DNA of 64,000 nucleotides from an uncultured Sulfolobales archaeon (GCA_937921695.1 CAKZTZ010000007.1:49719-113718); one strand, 5' to 3'. Shown: positions 10,279-63,704, counted from the first letter of the stretch. Made by a program: numbers and translations. Notes: generated by a model from the letters alone, not told the origin.

Positions 10279-10282
10279 AAAC

Positions 10283-30788: not shown

Positions 30789-31538
30789 GTGCCGGGGTTG
30801 AACAGCCTCTTAGAGGGGTTTAGATTAGTAGAGTTAAAGGCTAGCTATTATGTTTCAGAAGGACTCCCACCCATGCCTTATGATTCTAGCTTTAAAGTTA
30901 ACGTTAACGGAGTATTCTACACAGACCTTGCAGCCTCGCCAGACTACATAGAGGACTCTATAGTGGGGCTACTAGCGGGTAACAACGCTATAAAGTCTAA
31001 GGGTGACATAATAAGCTTGAACATAGATAGAGAATCTAACACTATTGACGTTAAAATAGCTGGGGAAGTAGCTCCGAGGAGGCTTTTCATAGACGACTGT
31101 ATAGCCCTAGCTTCCCGAGGCTCTAAGGTGAAACCGGGTTTCAAGCTTGAGAGAGAGATACTAGACGCTCTCGTTGAAGATTTCGAGTCTAGGGGTAGGG
31201 GCTTCCAGGGCCTCCAAGCCACAGGGCTATACTCTAAAGATGATAAGGTTGCAATTATAGCTTTCGATGTGAGCCGTTACGTTTCAACGTGTAAAGCCAT
31301 AGGGAGGGCTCTCAGGGAAGATTTAAACCTCAAATCTTCAATAGCCATAGCTACAGGTAGGGCTACTGGGGATCTTGTAGCTTTACTGGCTAACGTGGGG
31401 GTCCCTGTTGTGATCGTTTCGAAGGGGCCTGTATACAGTGGCTTCGCAATGGCAGCCCTTCTAGGGGTTACACTCATAATCTATAGGAGGCTTGGAGAGT
31501 TCACTGTTCTAACATACCCTGAGAGGGTTGTGGGGTGA
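30789..31538 (+). CDS. fdhD: FdhD-family (molybdo/tungstopterin sulfurtransferase-like) protein, without the canonical Cys pair
   Basis: The N-terminal pattern FKVNVNGVFYTDLAASPDYIEDSIVGLLAGNNAIKS and the C-terminal ATGRATGDLVALLANVGVPVVIVSKGPVYSGFAMAALLGVTLI resemble FdhD. Only one Cys (FIDDCIALASRG) sits where the CxxC loop is expected. Confidence 0.5.
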   Translation: MPGLNSLLEGFRLVELKASYYVSEGLPPMPYDSSFKVNVNGVFYTDLAASPDYIEDSIVGLLAGNNAIKSKGDIISLNIDRESNTIDVKIAGEVAPRRLFIDDCIALASRGSKVKPGFKLEREILDALVEDFESRGRGFQGLQATGLYSKDDKVAIIAFDVSRYVSTCKAIGRALREDLNLKSSIAIATGRATGDLVALLANVGVPVVIVSKGPVYSGFAMAALLGVTLIIYRRLGEFTVLTYPERVVG

Positions 31539-33517: not shown

Positions 33518-33780
33518 AGTTCCCATAACATTTCAAATCAACCCCAGCAAGCCCCCACACCTTAGTGGGACCATAAGTGTTTCCCGCTTAAAATTTACTA
33601 AGGCTGGATTGAAATTAACAAGACCCGGACCCTCGGAAGCCGAGCACTCTAGGAAGAGCCGGGGCTGGCCCTCGACGAACCCGGGGAGATGAGTGTAAAT
33701 TGTCTCCAGCAGTAATAGAAGCTACTTATTACTAGGAGGCCTGAACCTCTAGGCCTATTAGCCTGGAGGGCTTTTGATGT

Positions 33781-34062
33781 TTAGCTTACGCTATATAGGG
33801 TTAATCCCCCGCCTGCGGGTGGGAACACGTCGATCAGGCTGTCTTTTTCCACTATGGTGTTTAGGCCGTTTAAGAGTCTATAGTTGTGTCCATTAATTAA
33901 TATAACGTAATTCTCAAGCCCCGTCTCTACTAGTGTTTTCCAGAGTTCCGGTATGCCCTCTAATAGTTCTGAGAGTTTAACGTCCTTTTCCGTATCGACT
34001 TCTTTAACGTTCCAGCCTAGTTTCTCTCTCAGGGTGGCGTAGATTCTAATTTTTATAGTCAA
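33781..34062 (-). CDS. moaD: MoaD/ThiS/SAMP-like beta-grasp sulfur-carrier protein with residues beyond the Gly-Gly
   Basis: 93 aa. It has a beta-grasp-like pattern and ends ...IDVFPPAGGGLTLYSVS, so the GG is internal. It is divergent from aor. Confidence 0.7.
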   Translation of the reverse strand: MTIKIRIYATLREKLGWNVKEVDTEKDVKLSELLEGIPELWKTLVETGLENYVILINGHNYRLLNGLNTIVEKDSLIDVFPPAGGGLTLYSVS

Positions 34063-34161
34063 CGCTATTCCTCCTCCTAGTATTGTTGATTCTGTTAGAC
34101 TTAAAAATTATAGGTATAGAAGGTGCTATGGGAGCATAAAGATTTATTAATACCCTCGAGC

Positions 34162-34171
34162 TAAAAATATA
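34162..34171 (+). promoter_or_regulatory. TATA-like box (taaaaatata) about 24 nt upstream of the ATG at 34190 of aor
   Basis: An A/T-rich decamer at promoter distance from the most plausible aor start (MPGGYMGRIIRVDLT). Confidence 0.3.
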
Positions 34172-36079
34172 GTGAGTAAGGTGAGTTTGATGCCTGGAGG
34201 TTATATGGGCCGCATTATAAGAGTTGACTTGACTAATCAGAAAGTTCATTTTGAAGAGCTTCCAGAGGATGTTCTCAAAACGTGGGTCGGCGGTAGGGGT
34301 CTTGGAGTCTACATTATGCTTAAAGAGGTTAACCCTAAGGTCGACCCGCTAAGCCCCGGGAACAAGGCTATAGTAGCTACTGGGCCTCTCACAGGGGTTC
34401 CGGGTCTCGTGGCCCCCGGTAGGTGGGCTTCCATAACCAAGTCCCCTCTAACTAACACTATACACGATTCCCATAGCGGCGGCAAGTTCGGGCCTGAGCT
34501 TAAGTTCGCTGGTTTCGATGCTGTCATAATAGAGGGTGCTAGTGAGAAGCCTGTTTACTTATGGGTTTACGATGGTAAAGCCGAGCTTAGGGATGCTAAG
34601 CACCTGTGGGGTAGGGATGTTTGGGATACTACTGATACTATTAAGGAGGAAATGGCTCCAGCCATAGGGAGGGATGACGCTGAGGACATTAAAGTCGCCG
34701 CTATAGGGCCGGCGGGCGAAAATCTCTCTAAAATAGCTGCGCTAATAAATGATAAAGCTAGAGCTGCAGGGAGGGGAGGCCATGGGGCCGTATGGGGCTC
34801 CAAGAAGTTTAAAGCTATAGCTGCCAGGGGGCACATGAAACCTAAAGCAGCTAAGGAAGACATGTATAGAGAGGTCGTCAGCAAATCAATAGGAATGGCT
34901 AGAAAATCCCCCATAACCTCTGAGGCTCTTCCAAAGTATGGCACTGCTGTTTTAGTTAATGTTATAAATGCTCACGGCGCCTACCCCACCAGGAACTTCC
35001 AGACTGGAGTCTTCCCAACAGCCGATAAGACAGGCGGGGAAACAATAGCCCGTGAAATACTAGATGAGAAGCTGCAAAAAGAAGAGATATGCTGGGGCTG
35101 TGTAATAGGATGCTCTAGAGGCACGAGAATCACAAAGCCCCCCTTCACCGGCGAGGGGGGAGGTCCTGAATATGAGACCGTGTGGTCTTTCGGAGCCCAG
35201 ACTGGAACTGACGATTTAGCAGCAATCACTAAAGCTCATTACTTAACTAATCAAGTGGGTGTAGACGCTATATCTATGGGTCACGTGATTGGGACTCTAA
35301 TGGAGCTTGTAGAGAAAGGCAAAGTTTCGAAAGAGAAGCTTAGGGGTCTTAAAGTTGAGTGGGGTAACGGTGAGGTCCTAGTTGAGTTAACGTGGAGGAC
35401 AGCGTACAGGTCTGGCATAGGTGATGATCTCGCCGAGGGCGCCTTAAGGCTTGCAACCAAGTATGGGGCCCCAGAGCTGGCAATGGTGGTGAGGGGGCAG
35501 GAGCTTCCAGCATATGATCCTAGGGGGGCTAAGGGTCACGGCTTAGCGTACGCTACTAGCAACAGGGGAGGCTGCCACTTAAGAGCTTACATAATAGCTC
35601 CCGAGATCCTGGGAGTCCCGGAGCTAATAGACAGGTTCTCCCCGGTGGGTAAAGGCAAATGGGTTAAACTCTTCCAGGACGTCTTCGCAACCCTAGACAG
35701 CCTTGTTGTATGTAAGTTCGTCACTTTCGCCTATTGGAGTGATGTTCTAGCAGAGCAGCTTTCCGCAGTCACCGGGTGGGACGTGTCTCAGGCGGAGTTT
35801 GAGACTATAGGAGAAAGAATATACAATGCTGAGAGAGCCTTCAACGTGCTAGCTTTCGGTGACGGCGAAGATTATGACACGCTACCTAAGAGGCTTCTAG
35901 AAGAGCCTATGCCTGAGGGCCCAGCTAAAGGCCATGTTGTAGAGCTGAAACCAATGCTAGAAGAATACTACAAGGTTAGAGGCTGGATTAAAGGGAGGCC
36001 AACAAGAGAGACTCTAGAAAAACTAGGACTTAAATGGGTAGCCGACAGGCTCGAAGCTGAAGGACTACTCCCAGCTTAA
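34172..36079 (+). CDS. aor: Tungsten-containing aldehyde:ferredoxin oxidoreductase (AOR family)
   Basis: GRIIRVDLT start, GGRGLGVYIM, the cluster motif CWGCVIGCSR, and ELPAYDPRGAKGHGLAYATSNRGGCHLRAY. The likely true start is the ATG at 34190. Confidence 0.9.
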   Translation: MSKVSLMPGGYMGRIIRVDLTNQKVHFEELPEDVLKTWVGGRGLGVYIMLKEVNPKVDPLSPGNKAIVATGPLTGVPGLVAPGRWASITKSPLTNTIHDSHSGGKFGPELKFAGFDAVIIEGASEKPVYLWVYDGKAELRDAKHLWGRDVWDTTDTIKEEMAPAIGRDDAEDIKVAAIGPAGENLSKIAALINDKARAAGRGGHGAVWGSKKFKAIAARGHMKPKAAKEDMYREVVSKSIGMARKSPITSEALPKYGTAVLVNVINAHGAYPTRNFQTGVFPTADKTGGETIAREILDEKLQKEEICWGCVIGCSRGTRITKPPFTGEGGGPEYETVWSFGAQTGTDDLAAITKAHYLTNQVGVDAISMGHVIGTLMELVEKGKVSKEKLRGLKVEWGNGEVLVELTWRTAYRSGIGDDLAEGALRLATKYGAPELAMVVRGQELPAYDPRGAKGHGLAYATSNRGGCHLRAYIIAPEILGVPELIDRFSPVGKGKWVKLFQDVFATLDSLVVCKFVTFAYWSDVLAEQLSAVTGWDVSQAEFETIGERIYNAERAFNVLAFGDGEDYDTLPKRLLEEPMPEGPAKGHVVELKPMLEEYYKVRGWIKGRPTRETLEKLGLKWVADRLEAEGLLPA

Positions 36080-36189
36080 AGCCTGAGCTGCTTTAATATT
36101 CAAAATCTTTTTCTCTCATCTTCTCTTAAACCCAGTCACGCTCGAAGTAAGAGCTAGTGTTAACCTCAACTAGGGGATCTAATCTTATT

Positions 36190-37296
36190 TTAGATGGGAC
36201 AGTATGAGAGCCTATGTAGGTAGGGGCAGTGAGCGCATGAGGGGGAGTTTCCGTGGCAGTCGTATTCATTGGAGAGTGTTAGGTGGCAGTAGTTTTGGAG
36301 CTCACAGTCTAGGCATGAGGGTATTGCTGTTAAGTATAGCATGAAGAGTGTCCTGAAATGCCTCCTCCAAATGTTTTCTAGGCTCTCTTTCTCTAAGTCT
36401 CCTATTACTACTTCTCTTACTGTGCGGGGGACATTGTTTACTATGGTGGTCCACGTTCTAGAATAGTAGAGGCATGGGGATATTTTACCATCACATCTCA
36501 CGTATAGGGCTTTGTTTGAGGCGAAGGGGCATGACCTGTGTGATGAGGGGTTTACGTTAGGCTTGGATATTTTAATCCCTGACTCCATTGATCTCACCCC
36601 TATGTATTCAATTTGCTTCCCGACTTTGAGCCTACATTCGGGGTCTCCTACGCAGTCTATAGTTGTGTCTCCCCCGATGTATGGTATGTAGTAGCTGAGG
36701 ATGATTTCCATAATGTTTAGGGCTCTAGCGTAATCGAATATGCTCGAGATCTCGTTGATGTTAAGCTTGTTTATGGTGAATATAGCTTTCACTACGGGTT
36801 TGAGGGAGCCCTTCTCGCTTTTAGCTTTAGAGAGGGCTATTAAACCCCTAGTTACGGCTGTGAGGCTGCCCCGCTTCCTTATCATGCTATATAGTTTAAC
36901 GTCGAAAGCGTCTATACTAACGTAGAGCTCGTCAACACCAATATCCACTATAGCTTTAGACATGCTCTCAAGCGTTGAACCGTTAGTGTTTAAAGCAACC
37001 TCAAAACCCCTAGCCTTAGCCTTCGAAAGGAAACCCAGTATGTTAGGGTTAACTGTAGGCTCCCCCCACCCTGTGAACATAAGCCTCTTCACCCCCAGAC
37101 GCTCAGCCTCCTCCAAGACCCTCTCGTAAAGAGAGGAACTCATGATACAGTTCATGTTAAAACTCCTAGCACCATACCTGAAACAATGTATACAAGAATA
37201 GTTGCATGCAGTGGAAACCTCTATAACCAGCTCCTTCGGCCTAGAATCCCCCCTCATACTCACAGTCCAGTCACTAAATACTAAAGAATCACCCAT
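36190..37296 (-). CDS. Radical SAM protein with a Cys-rich SPASM-like C-terminus; likely AOR/tungsten-cofactor maturase (Cmo-like)
   Basis: CxxxCxxC in STACNYSCIHCF. The C-terminal Cys clusters are CLDCELQNYCHL...CHGNSPSCAHCPY. The gene is adjacent to aor. Confidence 0.75.
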   Translation of the reverse strand: MGDSLVFSDWTVSMRGDSRPKELVIEVSTACNYSCIHCFRYGARSFNMNCIMSSSLYERVLEEAERLGVKRLMFTGWGEPTVNPNILGFLSKAKARGFEVALNTNGSTLESMSKAIVDIGVDELYVSIDAFDVKLYSMIRKRGSLTAVTRGLIALSKAKSEKGSLKPVVKAIFTINKLNINEISSIFDYARALNIMEIILSYYIPYIGGDTTIDCVGDPECRLKVGKQIEYIGVRSMESGIKISKPNVNPSSHRSCPFASNKALYVRCDGKISPCLYYSRTWTTIVNNVPRTVREVVIGDLEKESLENIWRRHFRTLFMLYLTAIPSCLDCELQNYCHLTLSNEYDCHGNSPSCAHCPYLHRLSYCPI

Positions 37297-46740: not shown

Positions 46741-46787
46741 AAGTTACTAGGCATAGTGTATATGTGAGGAGGGGAGGTTGAAGGTTT

Positions 46788-47249
46788 ATGGGGGAATATT
46801 ACTTTGAAGATCTCCCTGTAGGGTTTAAGTATAGGAGCCCGTATGGTAGAACTATTACTGATGTGGATAATATTTGGTTTACTCTTTTAACTAACAATGT
46901 AAACCCTATACATTTTGATAAGGTTTATGTTGAGAGGAATTATGGAGGTGAACCTTTCTATGGGAATCTCGTTGTTAACGGTTTACTCACTCTCGCAATT
47001 GTCACGGGACTTACTACTGAACTCTCAGCTAGAGGCTTCATGGTAGGGCTTGAAAACGTGAGATGGCTTAAACCCGTATTCTCAGGGGACACTTTAACTG
47101 CAGAGTGTGATGTTGTCGAGGCTAGGCCTTCTAAGAGTATGCCGGGCTTTGGCCTGGTTAAGTTGAGAACTAAGGGGTATAACCAGAGAGGGGAAGTTGT
47201 AGTGGAGTTTGACAGGGTTATAATTGTTCCTAGGAGAACTAGAGGTTGA
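46788..47249 (+). CDS. MaoC-like (R)-specific enoyl-/mesaconyl-/itaconyl-CoA hydratase (single hot-dog), copy A
   Basis: 153 aa with NVNPIHFDKVYVE and the hot-dog fold pattern. It is a paralog of 53883..54353. Confidence 0.8.
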   Translation: MGEYYFEDLPVGFKYRSPYGRTITDVDNIWFTLLTNNVNPIHFDKVYVERNYGGEPFYGNLVVNGLLTLAIVTGLTTELSARGFMVGLENVRWLKPVFSGDTLTAECDVVEARPSKSMPGFGLVKLRTKGYNQRGEVVVEFDRVIIVPRRTRG

Positions 47250-47836: not shown

Positions 47837-49180
47837 ATGAGTGTGACGAGAGACTTAGCGGATTTCGTCGTCAACACGAGTTATGAAGACCTTCCGGGGG
47901 AAGTCATAGAGCGTGCAAAACTTTGTATTTTAGACTGGCTTGGCTGCGCCTTAGCCGGTTCATTGGAGCCTCCAGCTAAAATAATAACTTCGATTATAGA
48001 GAAAACTGGAGGAAGGGAGGAATCCACTGTAATTGGTACGCGTGTAAAAACTTCCTCTATGAATGCAGCGTTGGCTAACGGAATATTTGGGCATGCTGTT
48101 GAATTGGATGATATACATGAAACGGCCATCATTCACCCGGCAGCACCAGTCCTCCCGGCAGCTTTAGCTGTTGCTGAGCATGTAAATGCGGGAGGTCAAG
48201 ATTTTATAACATCGGTTGTTCTAGGTTACGAGGTTGGGATAAGAGTTGGGATGGCTATAAACCCTTCACACTACCAGTTTTGGCATACCACCGGTACTGC
48301 TGGTACTTTTGGAGCTGCCGCTGCGGCGGGGAAAATTCTAGGTTTAAACATTGAAGAAATGGTGTACGCCTTGGGAATCGCCGGGACACAGGCAGCCGGC
48401 TTAATTGAGGTTTTTGGGACTATGAGTAAACCTTTCAATGCAGGAAAGGCTGCTGAAAATGGAGTCTGGGCCGCACTATTAGCTAAGGAGGGCTTTACCA
48501 GCTCAAGATCTATACTTGAGGCTGAGAAGGGATATTGTAGGGCTGCCGCCAGGGAGTGCGACCTCAACAGAATAACTGAAAACTTAGGAAGGGAATTTGA
48601 AATAATGAATAACATCTTTAAGATCCACGCCTCATGCGGTCACACACACGGCGCTATTGATGCTGTTATCCAGTTATCTAAAGAGCAAGGCATTAAACCT
48701 GAAGATGTTGATAGGATTGTGGTGAGAACATATCCTATTGCTGTTGATGTTGTCGGCAAAAACTATGAACCAAAGACAGCCCCCGAGGCAAAGTTCAGTC
48801 TACCCTACTGTTTAGCGGTTGCGCTAATTTATGGTAAGGTTGGTCTAACAGAGTTCTCTGAAGAGAAGCTGCGCGATCTAAAAATCCGGAAACTTTCAAA
48901 AAGAGTCACAGTCATGGTTGACCCGGAATATACTAGTGCTCGATTAGGGCCCGCCAAGGTTACCCTGTACACTATAGATGGGAAGGAGTTTACGTGCCGT
49001 GTAGATATTCCAAAGGGTTATCCCAAGAACCCGGTAACTAGAGAGGAGCTTGAGGGAAAATTCGTAGACCTAGCCTCTCTTGTATTACCTAGTGAGAGAG
49101 TTAAGGAAATCGCAAGGACTGTAAATAGCTTAGAAAAACTCGACAGGATAACGTTTCTAGCCGATCTTCTACGTAAATGA
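47837..49180 (+). CDS. MmgE/PrpD-family protein (2-methylcitrate dehydratase / cis-aconitate decarboxylase superfamily)
   Basis: 447 aa with the N-terminus LADFVVNTSYEDLPGEVIERAKLCILDWLGCALAG, plus HAVELDD and FKIHASCGHTHGAIDA. It is preceded by the SD-like aaggaggaag. Confidence 0.85.
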   Translation: MSVTRDLADFVVNTSYEDLPGEVIERAKLCILDWLGCALAGSLEPPAKIITSIIEKTGGREESTVIGTRVKTSSMNAALANGIFGHAVELDDIHETAIIHPAAPVLPAALAVAEHVNAGGQDFITSVVLGYEVGIRVGMAINPSHYQFWHTTGTAGTFGAAAAAGKILGLNIEEMVYALGIAGTQAAGLIEVFGTMSKPFNAGKAAENGVWAALLAKEGFTSSRSILEAEKGYCRAAARECDLNRITENLGREFEIMNNIFKIHASCGHTHGAIDAVIQLSKEQGIKPEDVDRIVVRTYPIAVDVVGKNYEPKTAPEAKFSLPYCLAVALIYGKVGLTEFSEEKLRDLKIRKLSKRVTVMVDPEYTSARLGPAKVTLYTIDGKEFTCRVDIPKGYPKNPVTREELEGKFVDLASLVLPSERVKEIARTVNSLEKLDRITFLADLLRK

Positions 49181-49712: not shown

Positions 49713-50627
49713 TCACATATCAGCATTAGATTTTAAGGCCGTCCTTTTAATGATTATCTCATAGGTCATCAGTATTTCCTTAGCTATCTTATATGTGGCC
49801 TCATCAATCATCCTTCCCTCAACAGAGATGGCGCCCAAGCCTATTGCTTTAGCCTTCTCATAAGCTTCAACTATCTTCTTAGCTAAGTTAACGTCTTTCT
49901 CTGAGGGGGAGAAGATTTGATTAATGGGCTCAATATGCGCCGGGTGGATGCACATCTTGCCTTTAAATCCTAAGCTCAACGCTATTCGGGATTCTTTAAT
50001 TAACCCTTCTTTATCCGTTATAAGGCCAAGGAATGGAGTATCTATAGCTGGAACTTCAGCTAATCTCGAAGCTAACGCTATACGTGATCTGGCGTAGAGG
50101 ATTTCAGTTTGTTCAGGGGATAGGGAGAAATAACTTAGCCCGAGATCACGCATGTAATCAGCAGCCCCGAATCCTACGGCGATCAAGCGTTCACTCGCTG
50201 TGACTATTTCATTTACGTTCAAGACCCCCCTAGCGCTCTCAATGAGAGGAATTATTCCAGTTTCGGCTAATCTTTTTTCCCTCTCCTCACTCTCTATAAG
50301 TTTCTCTAGTTTCGAAACATCGTCTCTTGATTCTGATTTGGGGAGCATGATGGCGTCAACGCCTTCCTGGACGGCAAACTTGAGGTCTTCTCGTGTTAGG
50401 CCTGTGGTTAGCCCGTTTACTCTAATAACAACATTGTGGCCAGCTTCTTTTAATAATCCAATAGCGTCTTTAACGAGCCATCTAGCCGTCTCTTTCTCCT
50501 CCATGGGAACAGCGTCTTCCAAGTCCAGTATAATAGCGTCTGGTTTCTCTTCTTTAGCGCTCTGAATAAACCTCCAGTTGTTTGCGGGAACGAAGAGCAT
50601 GGACCTAAGTGGTTTTAATCGACCCAT
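49713..50627 (-). CDS. citE: CitE/HpcH-family acyl-CoA lyase (citryl-/malyl-/citramalyl-CoA lyase type)
   Basis: RSMLFVPANNWRF, IILDLEDAVP, and IPLIESARGVLNVNEI...GFGAADY. Confidence 0.85.
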   Translation of the reverse strand: MGRLKPLRSMLFVPANNWRFIQSAKEEKPDAIILDLEDAVPMEEKETARWLVKDAIGLLKEAGHNVVIRVNGLTTGLTREDLKFAVQEGVDAIMLPKSESRDDVSKLEKLIESEEREKRLAETGIIPLIESARGVLNVNEIVTASERLIAVGFGAADYMRDLGLSYFSLSPEQTEILYARSRIALASRLAEVPAIDTPFLGLITDKEGLIKESRIALSLGFKGKMCIHPAHIEPINQIFSPSEKDVNLAKKIVEAYEKAKAIGLGAISVEGRMIDEATYKIAKEILMTYEIIIKRTALKSNADM

Positions 50628-50638
50628 ATTATAGCCCC

Positions 50639-51535
50639 CTATTTCCTAAGTATTTTAGCTGCGGTTAAGGCCAATTCTTGAGGTTTGCCGACCACATAAG
50701 CCCCCGCGTCTCTAAGGGCTTTTTCTTTAATTTCAGCGGTGTCTCTTCTACGTTGAACAATCGCGCTGGCGTGCGAGAATCTGATGCCACTAGGTAATGT
50801 TCTTCCAGCAATATAAACTACAAGCGGCTTCGTATATTTGCCCTCTTTAATTACTTCTGCAACCTCGCTTTCCATAACTCCACCAATTTCTCCAAATAGC
50901 ACAACAAGGTCTGTTTCAGGATCTTTTTCGAAAAGCTCCAGATATTCAGCAGCAGTTGTGCCCACAATTACTTCAGTCCCTGTGTGAACAGCAGTACTTA
51001 TTCCTAAACCCTGCCTGGATATAGTCCATGAGACTGTAGTTACTTGCCCCCCGCTTCTCGATATTACACCTACATGTCCAGGCTTAAACGCTTCTCTCGC
51101 AAGCTCCTTCGCACCTCCAATCCAGCCGCACAAAGCTTTCCCAGGGCTGATGATTCCTAGAGATCCGGGACCAATTATCCTAGCGCCTTTCTCCTTAGCT
51201 CTGGCTATGATTTCCAAAATGTCATGTAATGGAACTCGCTCAACAGGCATCACTAAAGTCTTTATTCCAGCCTCTAAGGCTTCTATAGCAGCACTTTTAA
51301 CTAGTGGGGCTGGAACAAATGTTGCGCTCATATCTATAGGCCCATGTTCCTTAACAGCTTCCTTAACAGTATTATATACCGGCACACCCCAGACCCGCTC
51401 GCCTCCACGGCCGGGGGTAACCCCTGCAACAACTTTTGTACCATATTCAACCATGAGCCTGGTGGCGAACTCTCCTGTTCTACCCGTTATACCTTGCACG
51501 AGCACAGTGGTTTTCTCATCTATGATTATAGCCAT
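50639..51535 (-). CDS. Succinyl-CoA synthetase alpha-like subunit (CoA-binding and phosphohistidine domains), divergent
   Basis: It is collinear with SucD: VLVQGITGRTGEF, GVTPGRGG and VISRSGG. The active-site His is in FSHASAIV (SucD has GHAGA), and HTGTEV sits where SucD has GIGGDP. Confidence 0.8.
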   Translation of the reverse strand: MAIIIDEKTTVLVQGITGRTGEFATRLMVEYGTKVVAGVTPGRGGERVWGVPVYNTVKEAVKEHGPIDMSATFVPAPLVKSAAIEALEAGIKTLVMPVERVPLHDILEIIARAKEKGARIIGPGSLGIISPGKALCGWIGGAKELAREAFKPGHVGVISRSGGQVTTVSWTISRQGLGISTAVHTGTEVIVGTTAAEYLELFEKDPETDLVVLFGEIGGVMESEVAEVIKEGKYTKPLVVYIAGRTLPSGIRFSHASAIVQRRRDTAEIKEKALRDAGAYVVGKPQELALTAAKILRK

Positions 51536-51544
51536 ATTACCACC

Positions 51545-53158
51545 TCAAATAAGCTCCCCATACTTTCTTCTAAACTCTTCCAGGCCGCGAACCGGGAGTT
51601 CAACAGTTATCGCCTTTCCTCCATATAGCTCGCATACCACCTCACATGCTAGGCACTCGTTACAAGTTCTTTTAAGCTCTTCAGGACTTCCTGTTAAGGC
51701 GATTTTCCCGCCAACTATTCTTAAGCACGGCCTTCCATACCACCTATCCGCCTTCACACATGCAAAACCACATTTAGGCGCGATACACTTGCTGAGGTCG
51801 ATGAACACCTTACCGGTCTGAGTTTCAAAAGATAAATATTCTTTGGGGCTAATGATCCGCTCTTCTTCTAGGAGAACGCTGGGGCCGCCTATCCGCTCTT
51901 TTTCCCTTCTATACTCCTCTACTAATGCTATCATTCTATCAGCGATAAAATCCACATCATATATGTGGTCACGTCCATAGAGTTCCCAGCGTAACGGTAA
52001 ATCCCTTAATCCTTCCCTTATAATCCTATGAGTTTCACGCTCTTTATTTCCAGCTATTAATATTAAGACTGGAAAACCAGGTCTTTTCTTAGCCTCTTCT
52101 CTAAACGCCTTTACAATGGCATAGGCGTGATACCACTGTTCTTGGTTAGCAAGAACCGCTCCAGCTAAGCAGTAGCCCTCAATCCCGGGAATCGAAAGTA
52201 TGAGCTTTACGACCCTGTAGACTTTTGATGCAGCGGGATTCCCGCTAGTATCCACATAGGTGGCTAGCTTAAGCCCCTTTCGCATTAAAGCGTCAGCTGC
52301 AAGCATAGCTGCGCCCCCGCCTATGCCATGAAAAGCTATGTAGCCCCCTTTTCTTATCTCATCAATATTAGGGTTTAGCTGTACAAAATAGCTGACCCCC
52401 CTATAGTCTCCCTCCTCTATCTCCTTCCATGCGGTAATCTCAAGCTCCATAGGAGGCCTCATCATATCGCGGGGTACCTCTATTTTAAACTCGGGATGGC
52501 GGAACACGGAATTATCGTCTATTGTTATTCTGCAGTCTCCTGCAACCAACCGCCCCTCCCTAGTTAAAATGATCGGATTTATCTCTACTACACTGGCATC
52601 TGTTTTCACAAACACTTCATATAGTTTGCAAGCAATATTACTTAGCAAATCTACCGTATTATGTGGAACTTCAAGCTTTGATACTAGCCTTTGCGCGTCG
52701 GGAAGCTGGAGTCCACGAAGGTAGTCTATATCTATTGAAGATATTTTTTCCGGATATTTCTCCGCCACCTCCTCTACATCCACACCTCCCTCAGTGCTGA
52801 ATAGAATGGTTGGGCCCTTAACCTTGTAGGAGTCGTTAACGATTATGCTTAGGAAGAATTCCTTTTCCACATCGAGCCTCTCTTCTACCAAGACTTTCTC
52901 TACCTTCAAACCTCTAATTTCTCCCCCTAACATTTCCCATGCTATACTTTCAGCCTCCTGAGGGGAATCTGCAAACTTTATTCCACCAGCCTTAAACCGA
53001 CCAGTAGTCAAAACTTGCGCCTTAATCACAACAGGTTTGCCGATTCTCTCAGCTATCTTCATAGCTTCATGCGGGGTGGACGCTACCTCGCCTTCAGGAA
53101 CGGGGATACCAACGCTTTTAAGCAAATTTTTACATTGATACTCATATAATCGGACCAT
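51545..53158 (-). CDS. Succinyl-CoA synthetase beta / ATP-citrate-lyase-beta-like ATP-grasp subunit fused to a C-terminal ~95-aa 8-Cys ferredoxin-like domain
   Basis: ATP-grasp start YEYQCKNLLKSVGIPVP...VVIKAQVLTTGR and IAFHGIGGGAAMLAADAL. The C-terminal extension reads FIDLSKCIAPKCGFACVKADRWYGRPC...CNECLACEVVCE. Confidence 0.8.
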   Translation of the reverse strand: MVRLYEYQCKNLLKSVGIPVPEGEVASTPHEAMKIAERIGKPVVIKAQVLTTGRFKAGGIKFADSPQEAESIAWEMLGGEIRGLKVEKVLVEERLDVEKEFFLSIIVNDSYKVKGPTILFSTEGGVDVEEVAEKYPEKISSIDIDYLRGLQLPDAQRLVSKLEVPHNTVDLLSNIACKLYEVFVKTDASVVEINPIILTREGRLVAGDCRITIDDNSVFRHPEFKIEVPRDMMRPPMELEITAWKEIEEGDYRGVSYFVQLNPNIDEIRKGGYIAFHGIGGGAAMLAADALMRKGLKLATYVDTSGNPAASKVYRVVKLILSIPGIEGYCLAGAVLANQEQWYHAYAIVKAFREEAKKRPGFPVLILIAGNKERETHRIIREGLRDLPLRWELYGRDHIYDVDFIADRMIALVEEYRREKERIGGPSVLLEEERIISPKEYLSFETQTGKVFIDLSKCIAPKCGFACVKADRWYGRPCLRIVGGKIALTGSPEELKRTCNECLACEVVCELYGGKAITVELPVRGLEEFRRKYGELI

Positions 53159-53663: not shown

Positions 53664-53740
53664 TGGCGCTCCAAGAGGGGGATTTGAACCCCCGACCACC
53701 CGGTCTTCAGCCGGGCGCTCTCCCGCTGAGCTATGGTGCT
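53664..53740 (-). pseudogene. tRNA-Phe-derived pseudo-tRNA / att-like remnant
   Basis: The 57-nt core (53677-53733), from the D-arm through the GAA anticodon arm to the T-arm, is 100% identical to the intact tRNA-Phe at 57004-57078. The flanks (5' AGCACCA; 3' UCUUGGAGCGCCA) cannot form a 7-bp acceptor stem. Confidence 0.6.
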
Positions 53741-53882: not shown

Positions 53883-54353
53883 ATGGCGTTTGTGAGGGAG
53901 TTATACTTTGAAGACCTCCCTGTGGGGTTCAAATATAGGAGCCCGTATGGTAGAACTATTACCGATGTGGATAATATTTGGTTTACTCTTTTAACTAACA
54001 ATGTTAACCCTATACATTTTGATAAGGTCTACGTTGAGAGGAATTATGAGGGCGAGTCTTTCCACGGGAGGCCAGTCGTCAATGGCCTACTAACTCTAGC
54101 TATTGTCACGGGACTTACTACTGAACTCTCAGCTAGAGGCTTCATGGTAGGGCTTGAAAACGTGAGATGGCTTAGCCTCGTATTCTCAGGAGATACTTTA
54201 ACAGGTGAGTGTGAAGTAGTAGAAGCTAGGCCCTCCAAGAGCAGACCGGAATACAGCATTATCAGGTTAAAGACTAAAAGATATAACCAGAAAGGGGAGG
54301 TTGTAATGGAGTTCGACAAGATAATAATGGTCCCTAGGAGGGCTGGAGGTTGA
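53883..54353 (+). CDS. MaoC-like hydratase, copy B
   Basis: 156 aa, about four-fifths identical by eye to copy A (YFEDLPVGFKYRSPYGRTITDVDNIWFTLLTNNVNPIHFDKVYVERNY...). Confidence 0.75.
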   Translation: MAFVRELYFEDLPVGFKYRSPYGRTITDVDNIWFTLLTNNVNPIHFDKVYVERNYEGESFHGRPVVNGLLTLAIVTGLTTELSARGFMVGLENVRWLSLVFSGDTLTGECEVVEARPSKSRPEYSIIRLKTKRYNQKGEVVMEFDKIIMVPRRAGG

Positions 54354-54415
54354 GAAGAAGCCTCCTTTATACCCCGGCTAACAACGAGAAAATGCTTAGG
54401 AAAGCCCCTACACTT
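53904..54415 (+). repeat. Direct repeat copy B (maoC-like CDS plus the start of the citE pseudogene)
   Basis: See copy A (46800..47295). Confidence 0.8.
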
Positions 54416-55239
54416 GGAGCTGATGTCCTAATAGTAGATCTCAAAGATGCTGCTCTTAGAGTTTAAGGGGAGGCTAGAGCTTTAATTGGGAGACTATTTA
54501 GAGACCCTGGGTATGTTGAGAGTTTGAAGGGAGTCAAGGAAGTATGTGTAAGGGTTAATAGTCTATCGAGCCCTGAGGGGCTCAGAGATTTAGCCTTAAT
54601 AGTAGAACTGGAGAGAGTAAACTGTATAGTTGTGCCTAAAGCTGAAGGGGGCATACCATTCCTCTATAAAGCTACAGGTAAAAGATTGATTGCCATAGTG
54701 GAGACGCTAAAGGTCTCATCAGGGTAGAAGATATAGTGGCTTCCGAGGGCATCGAAGCTATAGCCCTTGGTATTGCAAATTTAGCTTTAAGCCTTAAGGG
54801 ATCTAGGGAGGCCTACGAGAATAACCTCTACATTAGAACTCTCATAGCAGCTGCCGCCAGGGCTTACGGCCTAGACCTATAGACAAGGTTTACTTTAAAG
54901 TTGACGATGCCGAAGGTTTCAAAGCTGAAGCCTTAGAAGCTAGAGCACTCGGCTATTCAGGCAACAAGTAATACACCAGGTTGAAATAGCTAGTAAAATA
55001 TTCAACCCAACACGGGAGGAAATAGGGTGGGCTAGAGAAGCGTGAGAGTATACGAAGAACCAGTTAAAAGCTGGTGGGGAGCTGTGAGATACAAAGGTGA
55101 GCTTATAGACCACGTTCACTACAAGATAGCCAGAAGAATCCTAGAAACGTTAAAACTTAACTCGCACCTTTTTCATGCTGAAAGAAGATTTAAGCCTCAT
55201 AGACTCAAAATCTCTCATTTCAGCATTCTCTCTTACTGA
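54350..55239 (+). pseudogene. citE: Disrupted citE-family lyase gene (in-frame TAA at 54464-54466 plus at least three frameshifts)
   Basis: Stitching frames by eye gives LRRSLLYTPANNEKMLRKAPTLGADVLIVDLKDAALRV*GEARAL...VVPKAEGG...IAIVETLKG / LIRVEDIVASEGIEAIALGIANLALSL...AAAARAYGLDL / IDKVYFKVDDAEGFKAEALEARALGYSGKQVIH / EIASKIFNPTREEIGWA / VYEEPVKSWWGAVRYKGELIDHVHYKIARRILE. This is collinear with the intact CitE at 49713..50627. The TTG start overlaps the maoC-B stop. Confidence 0.75.
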
Positions 55240-55288: not shown

Positions 55289-56461
55289 CTACTTCTTCCA
55301 GATCCAATACTCGTAGCCGTAGGGTGGCTGTTTTAACATCCTTTCTTTAATTAGATAATCTATTGTCTCGGTGAAAGCTAGATGATAGAACCAGGAGAAA
55401 AACTCTGCAAAACTAGAGTACCCGCTTGCTTTAAGTTTTTTAAAGGTATTCTGGATTTCGTCTAGGTTCTTATAGATTACATTGAAGATATGAGTAGACA
55501 TGTAGTTTATGAAGCTGTCAATAATGTTCATGTCTTCTCTCGTGTAAACTGGAGCTTGTGGATTGAGGTTTTCATCTAAGTATAGCCATTCTTTCAGGTA
55601 TTTCGCTGACTCCTCACCTATCTCGTAACCACTCTCATAGTATTTCCTCTCGTATTCTCTAAGGATCTTCGACACTTTGTCATCCAATTTCTTCATGACG
55701 ACATCTCTCTCGTGAACTGGAAGTTCCACAAATTTTTTATAGGCTTTTGAAGGGTCATTTTCACCCATTATCTCCATTAGAAGTTTAATTAGAGAGTCGG
55801 GCGGGGAAGTTCTCCGCCTCTCTTTCTCCCCTCCAAAACTTGCGAACCCATATTCGCTTAACTCACCATAATGCATCCCGTACCGGCCTAGATATTCCAT
55901 GCCACCCTCTACGCCCCACATGTAATATTGGCCACCTTTCCTTGCAGGCGCTCTCAACATAATTCTCCCCTCTTCCCCAAACTTCTTCAACATACCTACG
56001 TCCAGCGAGTAAGCGCCTACCAGGACAAACCCGACCCTATCAAAGCTGAATCTAGGTGAGATGGAAAGCTTACGGTATGTCTCCATGACAACATCCCAAC
56101 GAGCCTTATAGACTTCTCCAAGTTCAACCCCCAAACGCCTGGCAGCATTCCTCGTTCTCCGCACCTCCTCCCTTAACGCGATAAAGAAACCTGGAACTAT
56201 ACGCCCCTCTTTCTCTACTACAAACTCTGCTTCCTTCAGATGCCTTAGGTGACTCTCCACATCCCGCTCTGGAACATTAAGTAGTTTAGCTATACTTCTC
56301 ACAGAATAACCCTTATGAAGCCCTATTACAATACCTTTACGAACTTGCTCTCGGAAAATAACAAAAGGATCGTATTCCAAACAATAACTACCAGCAATAA
56401 TCACGTTAAACCTCGCAGCCCTCTCATTTAAATCCTTAATAAGCCCCACGGTCATGATCAC
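55289..56461 (-). CDS. Hypothetical protein with an N-terminal winged-helix domain and an unknown ~290-aa C-terminal domain
   Basis: 390 aa with the wHTH-like GYSVRSIAKLLNVPERDVESHLRHLKEAEFVVEKEGRI. Codon usage is foreign (AAA/GAA-rich, CGN Arg codons). Confidence 0.5.
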   Translation of the reverse strand: MIMTVGLIKDLNERAARFNVIIAGSYCLEYDPFVIFREQVRKGIVIGLHKGYSVRSIAKLLNVPERDVESHLRHLKEAEFVVEKEGRIVPGFFIALREEVRRTRNAARRLGVELGEVYKARWDVVMETYRKLSISPRFSFDRVGFVLVGAYSLDVGMLKKFGEEGRIMLRAPARKGGQYYMWGVEGGMEYLGRYGMHYGELSEYGFASFGGEKERRRTSPPDSLIKLLMEIMGENDPSKAYKKFVELPVHERDVVMKKLDDKVSKILREYERKYYESGYEIGEESAKYLKEWLYLDENLNPQAPVYTREDMNIIDSFINYMSTHIFNVIYKNLDEIQNTFKKLKASGYSSFAEFFSWFYHLAFTETIDYLIKERMLKQPPYGYEYWIWKK

Positions 56462-57003: not shown

Positions 57004-57078
57004 TGGTGCCGCCGGGGGGATTTGAACCCCCGACCACCCGGTCTTCAGCCGGGCGCTCTCCCGCTGAGCTACGGCGGC
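57004..57078 (-). tRNA. tRNA-Phe (anticodon GAA), CCA encoded, no intron
   Basis: Folded by hand: GCCGCCG-UA-GCUC-AGCGGGA-GAGC-G-CCCGG-CUGAAGA-CCGGG-UGGUC-GGGGG-UUCAAAU-CCCCC-CGGCGGC-A-CCA, a perfect cloverleaf. Confidence 0.9.
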
Positions 57079-61946: not shown

Positions 61947-63704
61947 ATGGTGTCCCATGTGACTGTAGAAGTTGTTGAACACGATATTGTGATAGTGGGC
62001 TCCGGTATAGCCGGTCTTAGAGCTGCAGTGGAGATTAAGAGGAACTATGGCGATAAGCTCAACGTCGGCCTTATAAGCAAGGTTCAACTTATGAGGAGCC
62101 ATAGTGTAGCTGCTGAGGGGGGCACTGCAGCAGTCCTCTATAGAGAGGAGGGTGACAGCTACGCTCTACACGCATGGGATACTGTTAAAGGCTCAGACTT
62201 CCTCGCCGACCAGGATGTTGTGTGGCTTATGGTTAAGCTTGCTGCGGAGGAAGTTAGGCTCTTAGAGCATTGGGGGCTGCCTTGGAGTAGGAGGCCTGAC
62301 GGTAGGATAGCTTTGAGGCCTTTCGGCGGTCATAGCTTTAATAGGACTTTATATGCAGCTGATAAGACTGGATTCTATGAGATGCAAACCCTCTATAATA
62401 AGCTCCTCGAGTATGATGGCTGGGAGAGGTATGATGAGTGGTTTGTAACTAATATATATGTTGATGAGGGGGAGTTTAAGGGGCTATTCACTTTAAACCC
62501 GAGGGATGGGAATATATACTTGTTCAAGGCTAAGGCAGCCATACTAGCTACTGGAGGCGCCGGGAGGCTCTATAGTTTCACTACATACTCACACTCTGTA
62601 ACTGGAGACGGGCTTGCAATGGCGATGAGGGCCGGCATACCTTTAAAAGACATGGAGTTCATACAGTTCCACCCAACAGGCCTAGTGCCTAGTGGGATCC
62701 TGATAACCGAAGGTGCTAGGGGCGAGGGCGGCTATCTTATAAACAATAAGGGTGAGAGGTTCATGGCTAGATATGCGCCCCAGAAGATGGAGCTAGCCCC
62801 TAGGGATATAGTGTCTAGGGCTATTATGAGGGAGATAGTGGAGGGTAAGGGTTTCATAGATGAAGTCTCGGGCCTCGAGTATGTACAGTTAGACCTCAGA
62901 CACTTAGGCGAAGACAAGATAAACGATAAGCTCCCAGCTGTGAGAGAGATAGCTTTGAAACACGCAGGCATAGACCCTGTGGAGGAGCCTATACCGATAA
63001 GGCCCGTAGCCCACTACACTATGGGCGGAATACACACTGATACTTACTATAGGGTTTTAGATAAGGATGGCAGATGGATCAGGGGGTTATTCGCTGCGGG
63101 CGAAGTAGCTGCGGCGAGCATACATGGGGCTAACAGGCTAGGCTCTAACAGCACCACGGAATGCCTAGTTTCAGGCCGCATCACCGGAATACTGGCTGCA
63201 GAATATGCCCTCAAAGCTGAGGAGGCTAAGGAGCCTCCGAGAGATAGAGTTGCGGCTGAGGAAGACTGGGTATACTCTCTCGTTAAAAGGGAGAGCGGGA
63301 CTCCCAGTTACATGGTAAGGAGGGAGCTCCAGGACACTATGGGCTCTAAGTTCTACGTCTTCAGGACCGAAGACGGTATGAGGGACGGCTTGCTTAAGAT
63401 AGTTAAACTCAGGAATATAATGAGGAGCGACGCTTACGTCGAGGACAAGTCTAGGGTTTACAATACAGACCTCATACTGGCACTAGAAACGGTAAACATG
63501 CTGGACATAGCTCTAGTTATAGCTAAAGGCGCTATAACTAGGCTGGAGAGTAGAGGGGCCCATTACAGGCTAGATTATACTAAGAGAGATGACGTCGACT
63601 GGCTTAAACACACGCTAGCTTTAAGATATGGAGAGGATGACGTCAGCCTATACTATGAGCCTGTAAGAATAACAACTTGGAAGCCTACTGAGAGAAAGTA
63701 TTAG
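61947..63704 (+). CDS. sdhA: Succinate dehydrogenase/fumarate reductase flavoprotein subunit
   Basis: FAD fold VIVGSGIAGLRAA, SHSVAAEGG, FHPTGL, HYTMGGI and ESRGAHYR. Confidence 0.9.
   Translation: MVSHVTVEVVEHDIVIVGSGIAGLRAAVEIKRNYGDKLNVGLISKVQLMRSHSVAAEGGTAAVLYREEGDSYALHAWDTVKGSDFLADQDVVWLMVKLAAEEVRLLEHWGLPWSRRPDGRIALRPFGGHSFNRTLYAADKTGFYEMQTLYNKLLEYDGWERYDEWFVTNIYVDEGEFKGLFTLNPRDGNIYLFKAKAAILATGGAGRLYSFTTYSHSVTGDGLAMAMRAGIPLKDMEFIQFHPTGLVPSGILITEGARGEGGYLINNKGERFMARYAPQKMELAPRDIVSRAIMREIVEGKGFIDEVSGLEYVQLDLRHLGEDKINDKLPAVREIALKHAGIDPVEEPIPIRPVAHYTMGGIHTDTYYRVLDKDGRWIRGLFAAGEVAAASIHGANRLGSNSTTECLVSGRITGILAAEYALKAEEAKEPPRDRVAAEEDWVYSLVKRESGTPSYMVRRELQDTMGSKFYVFRTEDGMRDGLLKIVKLRNIMRSDAYVEDKSRVYNTDLILALETVNMLDIALVIAKGAITRLESRGAHYRLDYTKRDDVDWLKHTLALRYGEDDVSLYYEPVRITTWKPTERKY

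Follow-up and report, generated by a model that had tools for sequence, protein, structure and literature searches.

Why should genes for a ligase resembling succinyl-CoA synthetase (SCS) run directly into a gene for a carbon-carbon lyase, and on which acid would their products act? These questions are raised by three genes at positions 49713-53158 of a 64,000-nucleotide stretch of DNA from an uncultured Sulfolobales archaeon (GCA_937921695.1 CAKZTZ010000007.1:49719-113718; the whole stretch is called the window here, and coordinates are counted from its first letter). An initial annotation, made from the sequence alone, saw in them a candidate undescribed ATP-dependent thiokinase/lyase system. 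The reading favored here, with a little more confidence than doubt, is that of an ATP-dependent catabolic module in which a 2-substituted malate, probably one from the C5-branched dicarboxylate pool, is activated and then cleaved. The three genes, with their open reading frames (ORFs), are the following:

51545..53158, minus strand: beta-like gene, ORF of 537 amino acids (aa), with an ATP-grasp half, a carboxylate-binding domain like those of CcsA and ATP-citrate lyase (ACL), and a C-terminal ferredoxin-like domain
50639..51535, minus strand: alpha-like gene, ORF of 298 aa, with a CoA-binding domain and a phosphohistidine domain that has His255 in FSHASA
49713..50627, minus strand: gene for a CitE-family acyl-CoA C-C lyase, ORF of 304 aa, HpcH_HpaI

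As had been noted from the sequence, the genes are co-directional, and ORF calls at exact coordinates give gaps of only 9 nucleotides (nt) between beta and alpha (51536-51544) and 11 nt between alpha and the CitE gene (50628-50638). Each gap carries a G-rich Shine-Dalgarno-like motif (GGTGG or GGGGG) before the start codon, and an A/T-rich stretch lies 5′ of the beta gene. With its 11-nt gap, the ligase is coupled in the genome to a CitE-type acyl-CoA lyase, as is the case for the malate thiokinase MtkAB. No description of a beta-(FeS)-alpha-CitE operon was found in literature searches, and to that extent the system is undescribed, but a thiokinase gene beside one for a CitE-type lyase is already known for malate on an Aminobacter plasmid. 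Similarly, the view that no such crenarchaeal system had been characterized stands with respect to the literature, but the architecture is no crenarchaeal peculiarity, as it is widespread in anaerobic archaea and bacteria.

Profile hidden Markov model and structure searches confirm an SCS-superfamily ligase and a CitE-family lyase, with all scores below curated equivalog cut-offs. The catalytic skeleton of SCS enzymes, which consists of an ATP-grasp domain, a CoA-binding Rossmann domain, a phosphohistidine, and GEIGG, is intact (alpha H255, GEIGG from G215, and the CoA motif GxTGxxG as GITGRTG at residues 15-21; beta E192 in the EINP motif at residues 192-195 of the ATP-grasp half). The alpha-like protein matches the Pfam families CoA_binding and Succ_CoA_lig. 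Its best NCBIfam model is SucD (NF004230), with 275 bits against a cut-off of 336, and its best PDB match is the SucD of Aeropyrum pernix with 278 bits, versus 175 bits for CcsB. However, the site motifs of SucD are replaced: GPNCPG by GPGSLG, GIGGDP by HTGTEV (residues 184-189), and MGHAGA by FSHASA (residues 253-258). These replacements, a 6-aa insert, and SRSGGQ are specific to the family.

The beta-like protein presents a more composite picture. Pfam recognizes ATP-grasp_2 (198 bits) and also Citrate_bind (PF16114; 33.9 bits against a gathering score of 26.8). Among NCBIfam models, SucC (NF001913) is the best but reaches only 248 bits against a cut-off of 370, and MtkA gives 161 bits against 604. 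The AlphaFold2 (AF2) model, with a predicted local distance difference test score (pLDDT) of 85.8, has Thermus SucC (3ufx) as its best fold match. Three parts can be distinguished along the chain:

52484..53158, minus strand: ATP-grasp (nucleotide) half, SucC-like, beta residues 1-225
51893..52483, minus strand: substrate/CoA-ligase domain, CcsA/ACL-like, beta residues 226-422
51548..51838, minus strand: ferredoxin-like domain of the 2x[4Fe-4S] type, beta residues 441-537

The first part is 45% identical to Thermus SucC and groups with the SucC/Mtk side at 100% bootstrap, yet outside the clade that SucC and Mtk form by themselves. The substrate domain alone, when compared with PDB sequences, scores higher with CcsA (6hxq_B, 49.8 bits) than with AclB (35.1) or Thermus SucC (27.9), and residues 226-400 are 30% identical to CcsA versus 19-22% to SucC and MtkA. 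Beta therefore has both the citrate-binding signature and its nearest substrate-domain similarity in the citryl-CoA synthetase (CCS) module of citryl-CoA synthetase and ACL, which supports the earlier impression that it is closer to the ACL type than to SucC. It has GGGxx, SGNP, and ANxx loops in common with CcsA, as well as a RPPxE..D[YH]RG insert (here RPPxE..DYRG). The SucC site motifs NGAGLAM, D[VI]GGGA, and FGGI are absent; beta has HGIGGGA, DTSGNP, and LANQEQW instead, and these replacements are kept in archaeal and bacterial members. The segments first singled out, namely FSHASA and HTGTEV in alpha and HGIGGGAAML in beta (residues 277-286), are all present, and the same deviations recur across both domains of life.

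One feature of the citrate enzymes is missing. The Arg pair of CcsA (RR) and ACLY (R378/R379) is replaced by Leu/Ile (ILI-AGNKE) in all family members, and the single Arg of SucC is likewise absent. R379 of ACLY is reportedly a citrate ligand, and the replacement argues against a third carboxylate on the substrate.

Neighbor-joining trees with 100 bootstraps were built against a small reference set (Klebsiella SucCD, Aminobacter MtkAB, the SCS of Thermus, Aeropyrum, and Methanocaldococcus, Hydrogenobacter CcsA, and a Caballeronia ACL-like pair). SucC, MtkA, and Thermus SucC form a 100% clade from which the operon-linked betas are excluded in a clade of their own. The operon-linked alphas are united with 100% support; SucD, MtkB, and a second, unrelated alpha from a Desulfobacteraceae metagenome-assembled genome (MAG; locus L012) are separate from them and hold together at 93%. 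The MtkA and MtkB sequences join those of Klebsiella SucC and SucD and stay apart from the operon family. A position of either subunit inside the SucCD clade can thus be rejected, while deeper branching is beyond the reach of these trees; for the beta C-terminal domain, only the exclusion from the SucC/Mtk clade is robust, and its placement relative to CcsA and AclB is not settled. Overall, the subunits are not ordinary SucCD, as had been proposed, since their scores fall below the curated SucC, SucD, and MtkA cut-offs and they lie outside the SucC/MtkA and SucD/MtkB clades. Judged from its sequence, beta is a mosaic: its ATP-grasp half is SucC-like, its substrate domain resembles those of CcsA and ACL, and its tail is a ferredoxin-like module.

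The ferredoxin-like module is separated from the rest of beta by a low-confidence or disordered linker (residues 424-438). It corresponds to the extra Cys-rich domain seen initially, and AF2 folds it confidently (pLDDT 95.3 when modeled alone and 80-89 inside the full beta model). Two Cys motifs, C458-x4-C463-x3-C467-x3-D471 and C499-x2-C502-x2-C505-x3-C509, provide the eight ligand positions of a 2[4Fe-4S] protein, with D471 at one of them. The spacing of the first motif (Cx4Cx3Cx3D) is unusual, and most stand-alone forms have Cx2Cx4Cx3C. Pfam gives no Fer4 match to the beta tail at E < 0.01, and a PDB sequence search with the Cys-rich tail returned only a chance match to a cytochrome c. Foldseek likewise finds no significant match (best E 0.07), but its top ranks are mostly Fe-S ferredoxin-type domains, and the weak matches include archaeal RNA polymerase subunit D, RnfB, FwdF, and a clostridial ferredoxin. 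Among weak matches, the ferredoxin of C. acidurici has a TM-score of 0.66 as normalized by target length.

When 1.84 billion representative proteins were scanned exhaustively with HMMER, only 68 relatives of the module were recovered, which are either stand-alone proteins of ~90-110 aa or the C terminus of the same beta family, as judged from the 27 sequences inspected and the lengths of most others. The module is fused to beta in 33 of 62 loci and is encoded by a small ORF between beta and alpha in another 27. It is obligatory for the ligase system and specific to it, and we know of no other acyl-CoA synthetase of the SCS superfamily with an obligatory ferredoxin module. Across 30 homologs, C1, C3, and C8, which belong to one cluster, are invariant, and the ligands of the second cluster vary. 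The Fe-S fusion thus seems real at the level of sequence and fold, and the Cys motifs suggest that clusters are bound. The module is a family-specific accessory on a flexible tether and might have a role in structure, redox gating, or electron transfer.

The third protein matches Pfam HpcH_HpaI over the full length of the profile (180 bits; protein residues 8-229, profile positions 1-221 of 221). It remains below every curated NCBIfam cut-off: citrate lyase beta subunit (citE), the top model, gives 247 bits against 443, RipC/Ccl 193 against 375, and haloarchaeal malyl-CoA lyase 86 against 500. Its best PDB matches are about equidistant, and comprise 5ugr, a malyl-CoA/beta-methylmalyl-CoA lyase (153 bits), Deinococcus CitE (134), CLYBL (121), and RipC (116).

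If the adjacency of ligase and lyase had arisen by chance, it should not recur, and the distribution of the operon bears on this point. Scans of genomes and metagenomes located the beta gene at 75 loci, with named carriers in Bathyarchaeia, Nezhaarchaeota, Thermosphaera, Ignisphaera, Desulfobacteraceae, Desulfosarcinaceae, Syntrophales, and Dehalococcoidia; of these, Bathyarchaeia, Nezhaarchaeota, Thermosphaera, Ignisphaera, Desulfobacteraceae, and Syntrophales are taken here as lineages of anaerobes. The order beta-(FeS)-alpha-CitE on one strand is kept in 53 of the 58 loci with enough sequence, in archaea and bacteria alike. Of the five exceptions, at least one stems from a missed ORF (the alpha of L015 was found by tblastn), and an alpha ORF is listed for three others (L036, L040, and L042). 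Partner genes were counted in the 27 loci with long flanks, with PrpD homologs counted within 10 kb:

18/27 long loci: MmgE/PrpD-family gene, conserved beside the ligase and lyase genes more often than any other partner
16/27 long loci: transporter (major facilitator superfamily [MFS], TAXI-TRAP, or Liv-type ABC)
14/27 long loci: TfrA-like flavoprotein
12/27 long loci: TfrB-like Fe-S/CCG protein
10/27 and 11/27 long loci: class-I fumarase-like alpha and beta, respectively
2/27 long loci: MaoC (the 64-kb window and L019)

Wherever the strand of the MFS gene was compared with that of beta (18 of 18 loci), the two agree, and bacterial loci also contain sigma-54 activators. The Tfr-like and fumarase-like paralogs score below equivalog cut-offs, although fumarase alpha nearly reaches its own (270 versus 276). 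Less common neighbors include PrpF and AcnX (three loci each) and CitG, which is present only in Nezhaarchaeota loci and on the strand opposite to the operon. In L019, the operon is accompanied by MaoC, an acyl-CoA dehydrogenase (ACAD), and a family-III CoA-transferase; in all, four loci other than the window have a CoA-transferase of this family. Recurrent neighbors include no malate dehydrogenase, aconitase, CitD, or CitF, and no glyoxylate-handling genes. A classical citrate lyase complex was accordingly rejected, as neither CitD nor CitF is found among the neighbors.

The window itself holds a different set of partners, which lie on both sides of the operon:

47837..49180, plus strand: MmgE/PrpD-family protein, 447 aa, Pfam MmgE_PrpD_N and MmgE_PrpD_C, convergent with the operon
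46788..47249, plus strand: MaoC-type (R)-hydratase copy 1, RipB/Ich-like, 153 aa, Pfam MaoC_dehydratas and MC_hydratase
53883..54353, plus strand: MaoC-type hydratase copy 2, 156 aa, divergent from the beta gene
54356..55149, plus strand: degraded second CitE-like pseudogene directly 3′ of MaoC copy 2, found by blastx against the operon CitE

The PrpD-like protein scores 195 bits with IDS epimerase, 190 with B. subtilis 'IRG1', 128 with cis-aconitate decarboxylase, and 59 with PrpD. It therefore belongs to the epimerase/decarboxylase side of the family and not to PrpD proper, and a function as 2-methylcitrate dehydratase was rejected on the same scores. A tblastn search with this protein against plasmids returns hundreds of MmgE/PrpD proteins at ~40% identity, among which only gene contexts are informative. 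For both MaoC copies, which are 83% identical as proteins, RipB_Ich is the best NCBIfam model (120 and 111 bits against a cut-off of 340), and mesaconyl-CoA hydratase is the second model for copy 1. The two genes correspond to a 300-nt direct repeat (46784-47083 and 53888-54187; 88% identity, spacing 7104 nt) whose copies bracket the PrpD-like gene and the operon. The pseudogene is traced by matches to CitE residues 8-100 (32%, E 6e-8, with an in-frame stop), 253-288 (42%, E 6e-4), and, weakly, 203-223 (E 9.4), and the interval holds no ORF of 80 aa or more. MaoC copy 2 and the pseudogene look like a former RipB/RipC-like pair that has decayed.

Similar gene sets can be found on plasmids. Clusters in Deinococcus and Rubrobacter encode PrpD, ACAD, and MaoC, and the Deinococcus one also a CoA-transferase and a CoA ester lyase; the window proteins are 39-42% (PrpD-like), 45-47% (MaoC), and 38% (CitE) identical to their counterparts there. 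No CoA-transferase is present among the ORFs checked around the window operon, and the ligase holds the logical position that Ict has in the itaconate pathway.

How, then, might these proteins work together? Alpha and beta would form an ADP-forming acid-CoA ligase of the succinyl-CoA/citryl-CoA synthetase superfamily. By the family mechanism, ATP in the ATP-grasp half of beta would phosphorylate His255 of alpha, the phosphate would pass to a carboxylate held by the CcsA/ACL-like domain, and CoA would then displace the phosphate. The CitE lyase would split the resulting 3-hydroxy-3-carboxy-acyl-CoA into acetyl-CoA and a 2-oxoacid. The mechanism of SCS-type families, taken with the invariant CitE partner, is what suggests an activate-then-cleave module. 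The parallel drawn at the outset with malate and citrate systems is thus supported, but the substrate is less open than it had been left, as the conserved partners, which had gone unnoticed, point to C5-branched dicarboxylates.

In most genomes, citramalate would be made from mesaconate or methylsuccinate by the neighboring fumarase-like and TfrAB-like paralogs, with the PrpD-family protein as an isomerase. In the window genome, the ligase would act first, on itaconate or mesaconate, and the adjacent MaoC hydratases would then add water to the CoA ester, with pyruvate and acetyl-CoA as products. The PrpD-like, Tfr-like, and fumarase-like proteins, the ligase, and the lyase might then represent a paralogous version of the branch from succinate through fumarate and malate to malyl-CoA that acts on a substituted substrate. 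The scores of the TfrAB-like and fumarase-like proteins, which remain below cut-offs, fit such a substituted succinate/fumarate/malate series.

Several clues favor a C5-branched substrate. Itaconate/methylsuccinate clusters are known to include a methylsuccinate isomerase of the PrpD family, and itaconate is among the acids that SCS activates (PMC12290011). A PrpD-family partner from the epimerase/decarboxylase side is present in 18 of the 27 long loci, and the loss of the Arg pair speaks for two carboxylates and not three. Two RipB/Ich-like MaoC genes flank the window operon, one of them next to a decayed CitE gene. The likeness of the PrpD-like, MaoC, and CitE proteins to the Deinococcus and Rubrobacter plasmid clusters, and the gene set of L019, point the same way. 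Catabolism of an imported acid is suggested by the transporters, the co-directional MFS genes, and the inducible sigma-54 regulators.

Certain observations weigh against this interpretation. Every partner enzyme scores below its curated equivalog cut-off, and the lyase fits none of the characterized subfamilies (citrate lyase beta, RipC/Ccl, or malyl-CoA lyase), being about equidistant from them. As MaoC is found in just two of the 27 long loci, the CoA-level route would be lineage-specific and the ligase would have to take different acids in different genomes. The PrpF and AcnX neighbors, the CcsA-like domain, and the top NCBIfam model of the lyase fit tricarboxylates such as aconitate and citrate equally well. 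Oxidation of methylsuccinate to mesaconate is thermodynamically hard in strict anaerobes, and Mvh/Hdr-like genes by the Thermosphaera locus suggest reduction instead. Direction, whether cleavage or condensation with a gain of ATP, is judged from the transporters only. Finally, one bacterial subgroup has lost the second Cys motif of the module, whose Fe-S binding is deduced from those motifs.

A bolder version of the same idea can be entertained only tentatively, and is in its full form rather doubtful. It holds that the ligase family is an unrecognized third lineage of the SCS/CCS/ACL superfamily, a SucCD/citryl-CoA synthetase mosaic that works with a CitE lyase in place of one of the citrate-synthase type. 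As it would depend on its ferredoxin module, the ligase would be redox-gated or electron-coupled. With the PrpD-, Tfr-, and fumarase-like paralogs, it would form a complete 'shadow TCA branch' (TCA, tricarboxylic acid) in anaerobic archaea and bacteria, from which acetyl-CoA and a 2-oxoacid would arise out of substituted succinates such as methylsuccinate and possibly tricarballylate or alkylsuccinates.

Among alternatives, the one that survives best, although it is unlikely, is a CitE-based two-step cleavage of citrate, in which a citryl-CoA synthetase and a citryl-CoA lyase would yield oxaloacetate and acetyl-CoA, or in reverse act as an ATP-yielding citrate synthase. PrpD, PrpF, and AcnX would feed aconitate-type tricarboxylates into this route, and the fumarase- and Tfr-like enzymes would reduce the C4 acids derived from oxaloacetate. 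The Citrate_bind match above its gathering score, the nearness of the beta C-terminal domain to CcsA and then AclB with loops and an insert in common, and the rank of citrate lyase beta as the best model for the lyase all accord with it. So do the PrpF and AcnX neighbors, where the link of PrpF to methylaconitate comes from its NCBIfam name alone. Also, characterized PrpD-family enzymes include some that act on tricarboxylates, namely 2-methylcitrate dehydratase and cis-aconitate decarboxylase (PMC12290011). What tells against citrate is the loss of the Arg pair, an alpha subunit far nearer to SucD than to CcsB, and a lyase well under the citE cut-off. Furthermore, malate dehydrogenase, aconitase, CitD, and CitF are missing from the recurrent neighbors, and the MaoC/Ich-like hydratases of the window would have no role.

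A malate thiokinase with a malyl-CoA lyase is less probable. Here, malate derived from fumarate would be converted to malyl-CoA and on to glyoxylate and acetyl-CoA, or the reverse, as in the logic of the serine cycle. In the serine-cycle cluster mcl-mtkA-mtkB, ligase and lyase genes are likewise adjacent and follow this logic, the lyase finds its best PDB sequence match in the malyl-CoA/beta-methylmalyl-CoA lyase 5ugr, and the TfrA-like, TfrB-like, and fumarase-like partners resemble canonical enzymes of succinate, fumarate, and malate, with fumarase alpha within a few bits of its cut-off. Yet the MtkA model is matched far below threshold, both subunits lie outside the Mtk/Suc clade, and the substrate loops of beta are unlike those of MtkA and SucC. 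Moreover, the PrpD-family partner, PrpF, AcnX, and MaoC would be left without a role, and glyoxylate-handling genes do not recur nearby.

Operation in the condensing, energy-conserving direction is slightly more doubtful again. The lyase would join acetyl-CoA to a 2-oxoacid, the ligase would hydrolyze the thioester and form ATP, a Tfr-like reductase would use the unsaturated product as an electron sink, and the ferredoxin module would link the ligase to redox chemistry. SCS-type ligases are reversible, the named carriers fall largely in lineages taken as anaerobes, the Thermosphaera operon adjoins a Mvh/Hdr-like hydrogenase cluster and a TfrA-like gene, and the Fe-S module otherwise lacks an explanation. 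Uptake transporters, co-directional MFS genes, and bacterial sigma-54 activators argue instead for catabolism of an imported acid, and loci that lack a nearby Tfr-like gene (the 64-kb window and the Nezhaarchaeota locus L001) have the Fe-S module as well.

An ordinary, divergent succinyl-CoA synthetase of the TCA cycle with a fortuitous CitE neighbor can be rejected as very improbable: SucC and SucD are the top NCBIfam models and fold matches, a canonical SdhA lies 9 kb away, and no second sucCD is found within the 64-kb window, but the scores fall below curated cut-offs, both subunits have separate clades, the succinate-site and phosphohistidine-loop motifs are replaced in the same way across two domains of life, the Fe-S module is obligatory, the CitE linkage is conserved, and the segment is low in GC3 and probably acquired. 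The canonical SdhA/FrdA flavoprotein (61947-63704, plus strand) scores 964 bits, above its cut-off of 826, and differs from the TfrA-like paralogs found with the operon in other genomes; the window ends before any SdhB.

The catabolic module for C5-branched acids that is preferred here probably reached this genome by horizontal transfer, which is plausible on several grounds. The initial suggestion of foreign codon usage is moderately supported by GC content at third codon positions (GC3) and by relative codon-usage distance. GC is 0.40-0.44 between 46 and 58 kb versus about 0.48; GC3 is 0.36-0.44 for the PrpD-like, CitE, alpha, and beta genes (0.36-0.47 over the segment 46000-58000) versus about 0.50 elsewhere in the window. 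The codon-usage distance of these genes is ~2x that of core genes of similar length. Two tRNA features lie nearby:

53664..53739, minus strand: tRNA-Phe-like fragment ~500 nt upstream of the beta start, covering Rfam model positions 7-64 only
57004-57078, minus strand: intact tRNA-Phe(GAA) with a perfect acceptor stem and CCA, 3.3 kb from the fragment

A 60-nt core is common to both at 98% identity, and both acceptor-stem halves of the fragment are replaced. The fragment is thus a pseudo-tRNA or recombination scar and may mark the edge of an acquired segment. The nearest named relatives of beta are in Bathyarchaeia (71-72%), ahead of Desulfurococcales copies (57-60%), whereas the host is a Thermoprotei archaeon: its MCM shares 96% identity with the one from a "Thermoprotei archaeon" MAG, with next relatives at 70-81% that include Acidilobaceae and Desulfurococcales MAGs. 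It is the combination of low GC and GC3, deviant codon usage, the copied tRNA-Phe core, and the differing affinities of beta and MCM that points to acquisition. No integrase or viral gene was detected, and PHROGs gave no matches to the ORFs of the island, among them a 390-aa ORF between the two tRNA-Phe copies (55289-56461, minus strand) that has a weak helix-turn-helix signal and no Pfam or PHROG family.

Other parts of the window can be described briefly. At 9247-13357 (minus strand), a methylmalonyl-CoA mutase large subunit (850 bits) is encoded with a MeaB GTPase, and a 157-aa ORF without an NCBIfam match lies between them. A 1237-aa ORF at 2537-6250 (plus strand) has no Pfam match (E <= 1e-5) and no PHROG match. 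A tungsten/molybdenum cofactor neighborhood at 31535-37296 has genes for an aldehyde:ferredoxin oxidoreductase, for a fusion of MoeA with PBP, and for a protein like the tungsten-cofactor radical-SAM maturase, which scores 340 bits where the cut-off is 380.

Related loci also contain genes that merit mention in their own right. In Thermosphaera (L006, 9350-15679), an HdrB-like (CCG) and an HdrC-like protein, large and small subunits of a [NiFe]-hydrogenase, MvhD, an HdrA-like protein, and fumarase beta are encoded beside the operon and the TfrA-like gene; this cluster may be an H2-dependent reductase for an unsaturated acid. The Desulfobacteraceae MAG L012 has a second SCS-like pair (4880-8418), also below the SucC and SucD cut-offs, that adjoins another PrpD-family gene. 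Its beta has the CcsA-like loops GGGGAS and GGNP and a DHRG insert, and the pair looks like a further uncharacterized paralogous ligase system. In the deltaproteobacterial locus L003 (10001-15318), a 421-aa beta homolog (60% identity) and a small Fe-S ORF remnant occur without alpha or CitE and adjoin hydantoinase A/B-like and HGD-D genes. Two Bathyarchaeia loci (L004 and L005) have a LUD-domain protein after the operon, a creatininase-family protein nearby, and, around the operon, several molybdopterin oxidoreductases that resemble pyrogallol transhydroxylase and are each accompanied by a 4-cluster Fe-S subunit.

The consequences of a correct assignment extend beyond this genome. Automatic annotation by JGI and NCBI labels these genes "succinyl-CoA synthetase" and "citrate lyase beta", so metabolic reconstructions of Bathyarchaeia, Nezhaarchaeota, Desulfurococcales, Desulfobacteraceae, and Syntrophales would miscount them as TCA-cycle or citrate-lyase genes. 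If the function were defined, one more ATP-dependent route would be known by which branched or substituted dicarboxylates are used in anoxic and geothermal habitats. A natural SucC/CcsA mosaic also bears on the origin of citryl-CoA synthetase and ATP-citrate lyase from SCS. The ferredoxin module poses the question of whether it is a redox switch, an electron relay to a Tfr-like reductase, or an assembly element. Furthermore, pathway engineering could make use of a thermostable CoA ligase for citramalate or itaconate together with its matching lyase.

When set beside known systems, the operon falls by its sequences outside SucCD, MtkAB, CcsAB, citrate lyase beta, and RipC, while its overall logic has precedents. 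SucCD (Thermus 3ufx and Aeropyrum pernix 2yv2) is the best overall match in sequence and fold, with two subunits, the same folds, and the same catalytic skeleton. In contrast to SucCD, the operon ligase has a CcsA-like substrate domain, a ferredoxin-like domain, the alpha motif replacements and 6-aa insert, and the linkage to CitE. CcsAB (Hydrogenobacter thermophilus, 6hxq) and the CCS module of ACL resemble it in the substrate-domain loops and insert of beta, in the Citrate_bind signature, and in the use of a ligase followed by a separate lyase. However, the partner lyase here is a CitE-type (HpcH/HpaI) TIM barrel, whereas that of CcsAB is Ccl, with a citrate-synthase-like fold. The pairing of a CcsB-type small subunit with such a lyase is not found, as alpha is SucD-like; in addition, the operon ligase lacks the Arg pair and has a SucCD-like ATP-grasp half and a ferredoxin module. 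MtkAB with Mcl is alike in placing an SCS-type ligase gene beside one for a CitE-type lyase, so that a hydroxy-dicarboxylate is activated and then cleaved. In that system, the order is mcl-mtkA-mtkB, as in the adjacent genes on the Aminobacter plasmid (locus L020), and MtkAB lies inside the SucCD clade, lacks an Fe-S module, and has serine-cycle partners, whereas the partners here are PrpD, Tfr-like, fumarase-like, and MaoC proteins.

The mammalian route for itaconate employs IRG1, SCS, a hydratase, and CLYBL. The itaconate/methylsuccinate clusters (Ict, Ich, Ccl, Mcd, and an MmgE/PrpD isomerase; PMC12290011) are resembled in family composition by the PrpD-family, MaoC/Ich-like, and CitE/Ccl-like proteins of the window. 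The window differs from these clusters in having a dedicated ATP-dependent ligase in place of a CoA-transferase and no acyl-CoA dehydrogenase beside the operon; its proteins also lie below the RipB and RipC equivalog cut-offs, and most related loci use free-acid Tfr- and fumarase-like enzymes. The ferredoxin-like module, for its part, has its best weak structural matches in the Fe-S domain of archaeal RNA polymerase subunit D and in small 2[4Fe-4S] ferredoxins, with which it has the two-motif Cys pattern in common, but it differs from them in the spacing of the first motif, in giving no significant match, and in occurring only with this ligase family. Overall, the comparison shows a ligase lineage of the SCS/CCS superfamily that has a private ferredoxin module and is hard-wired to a CitE lyase.

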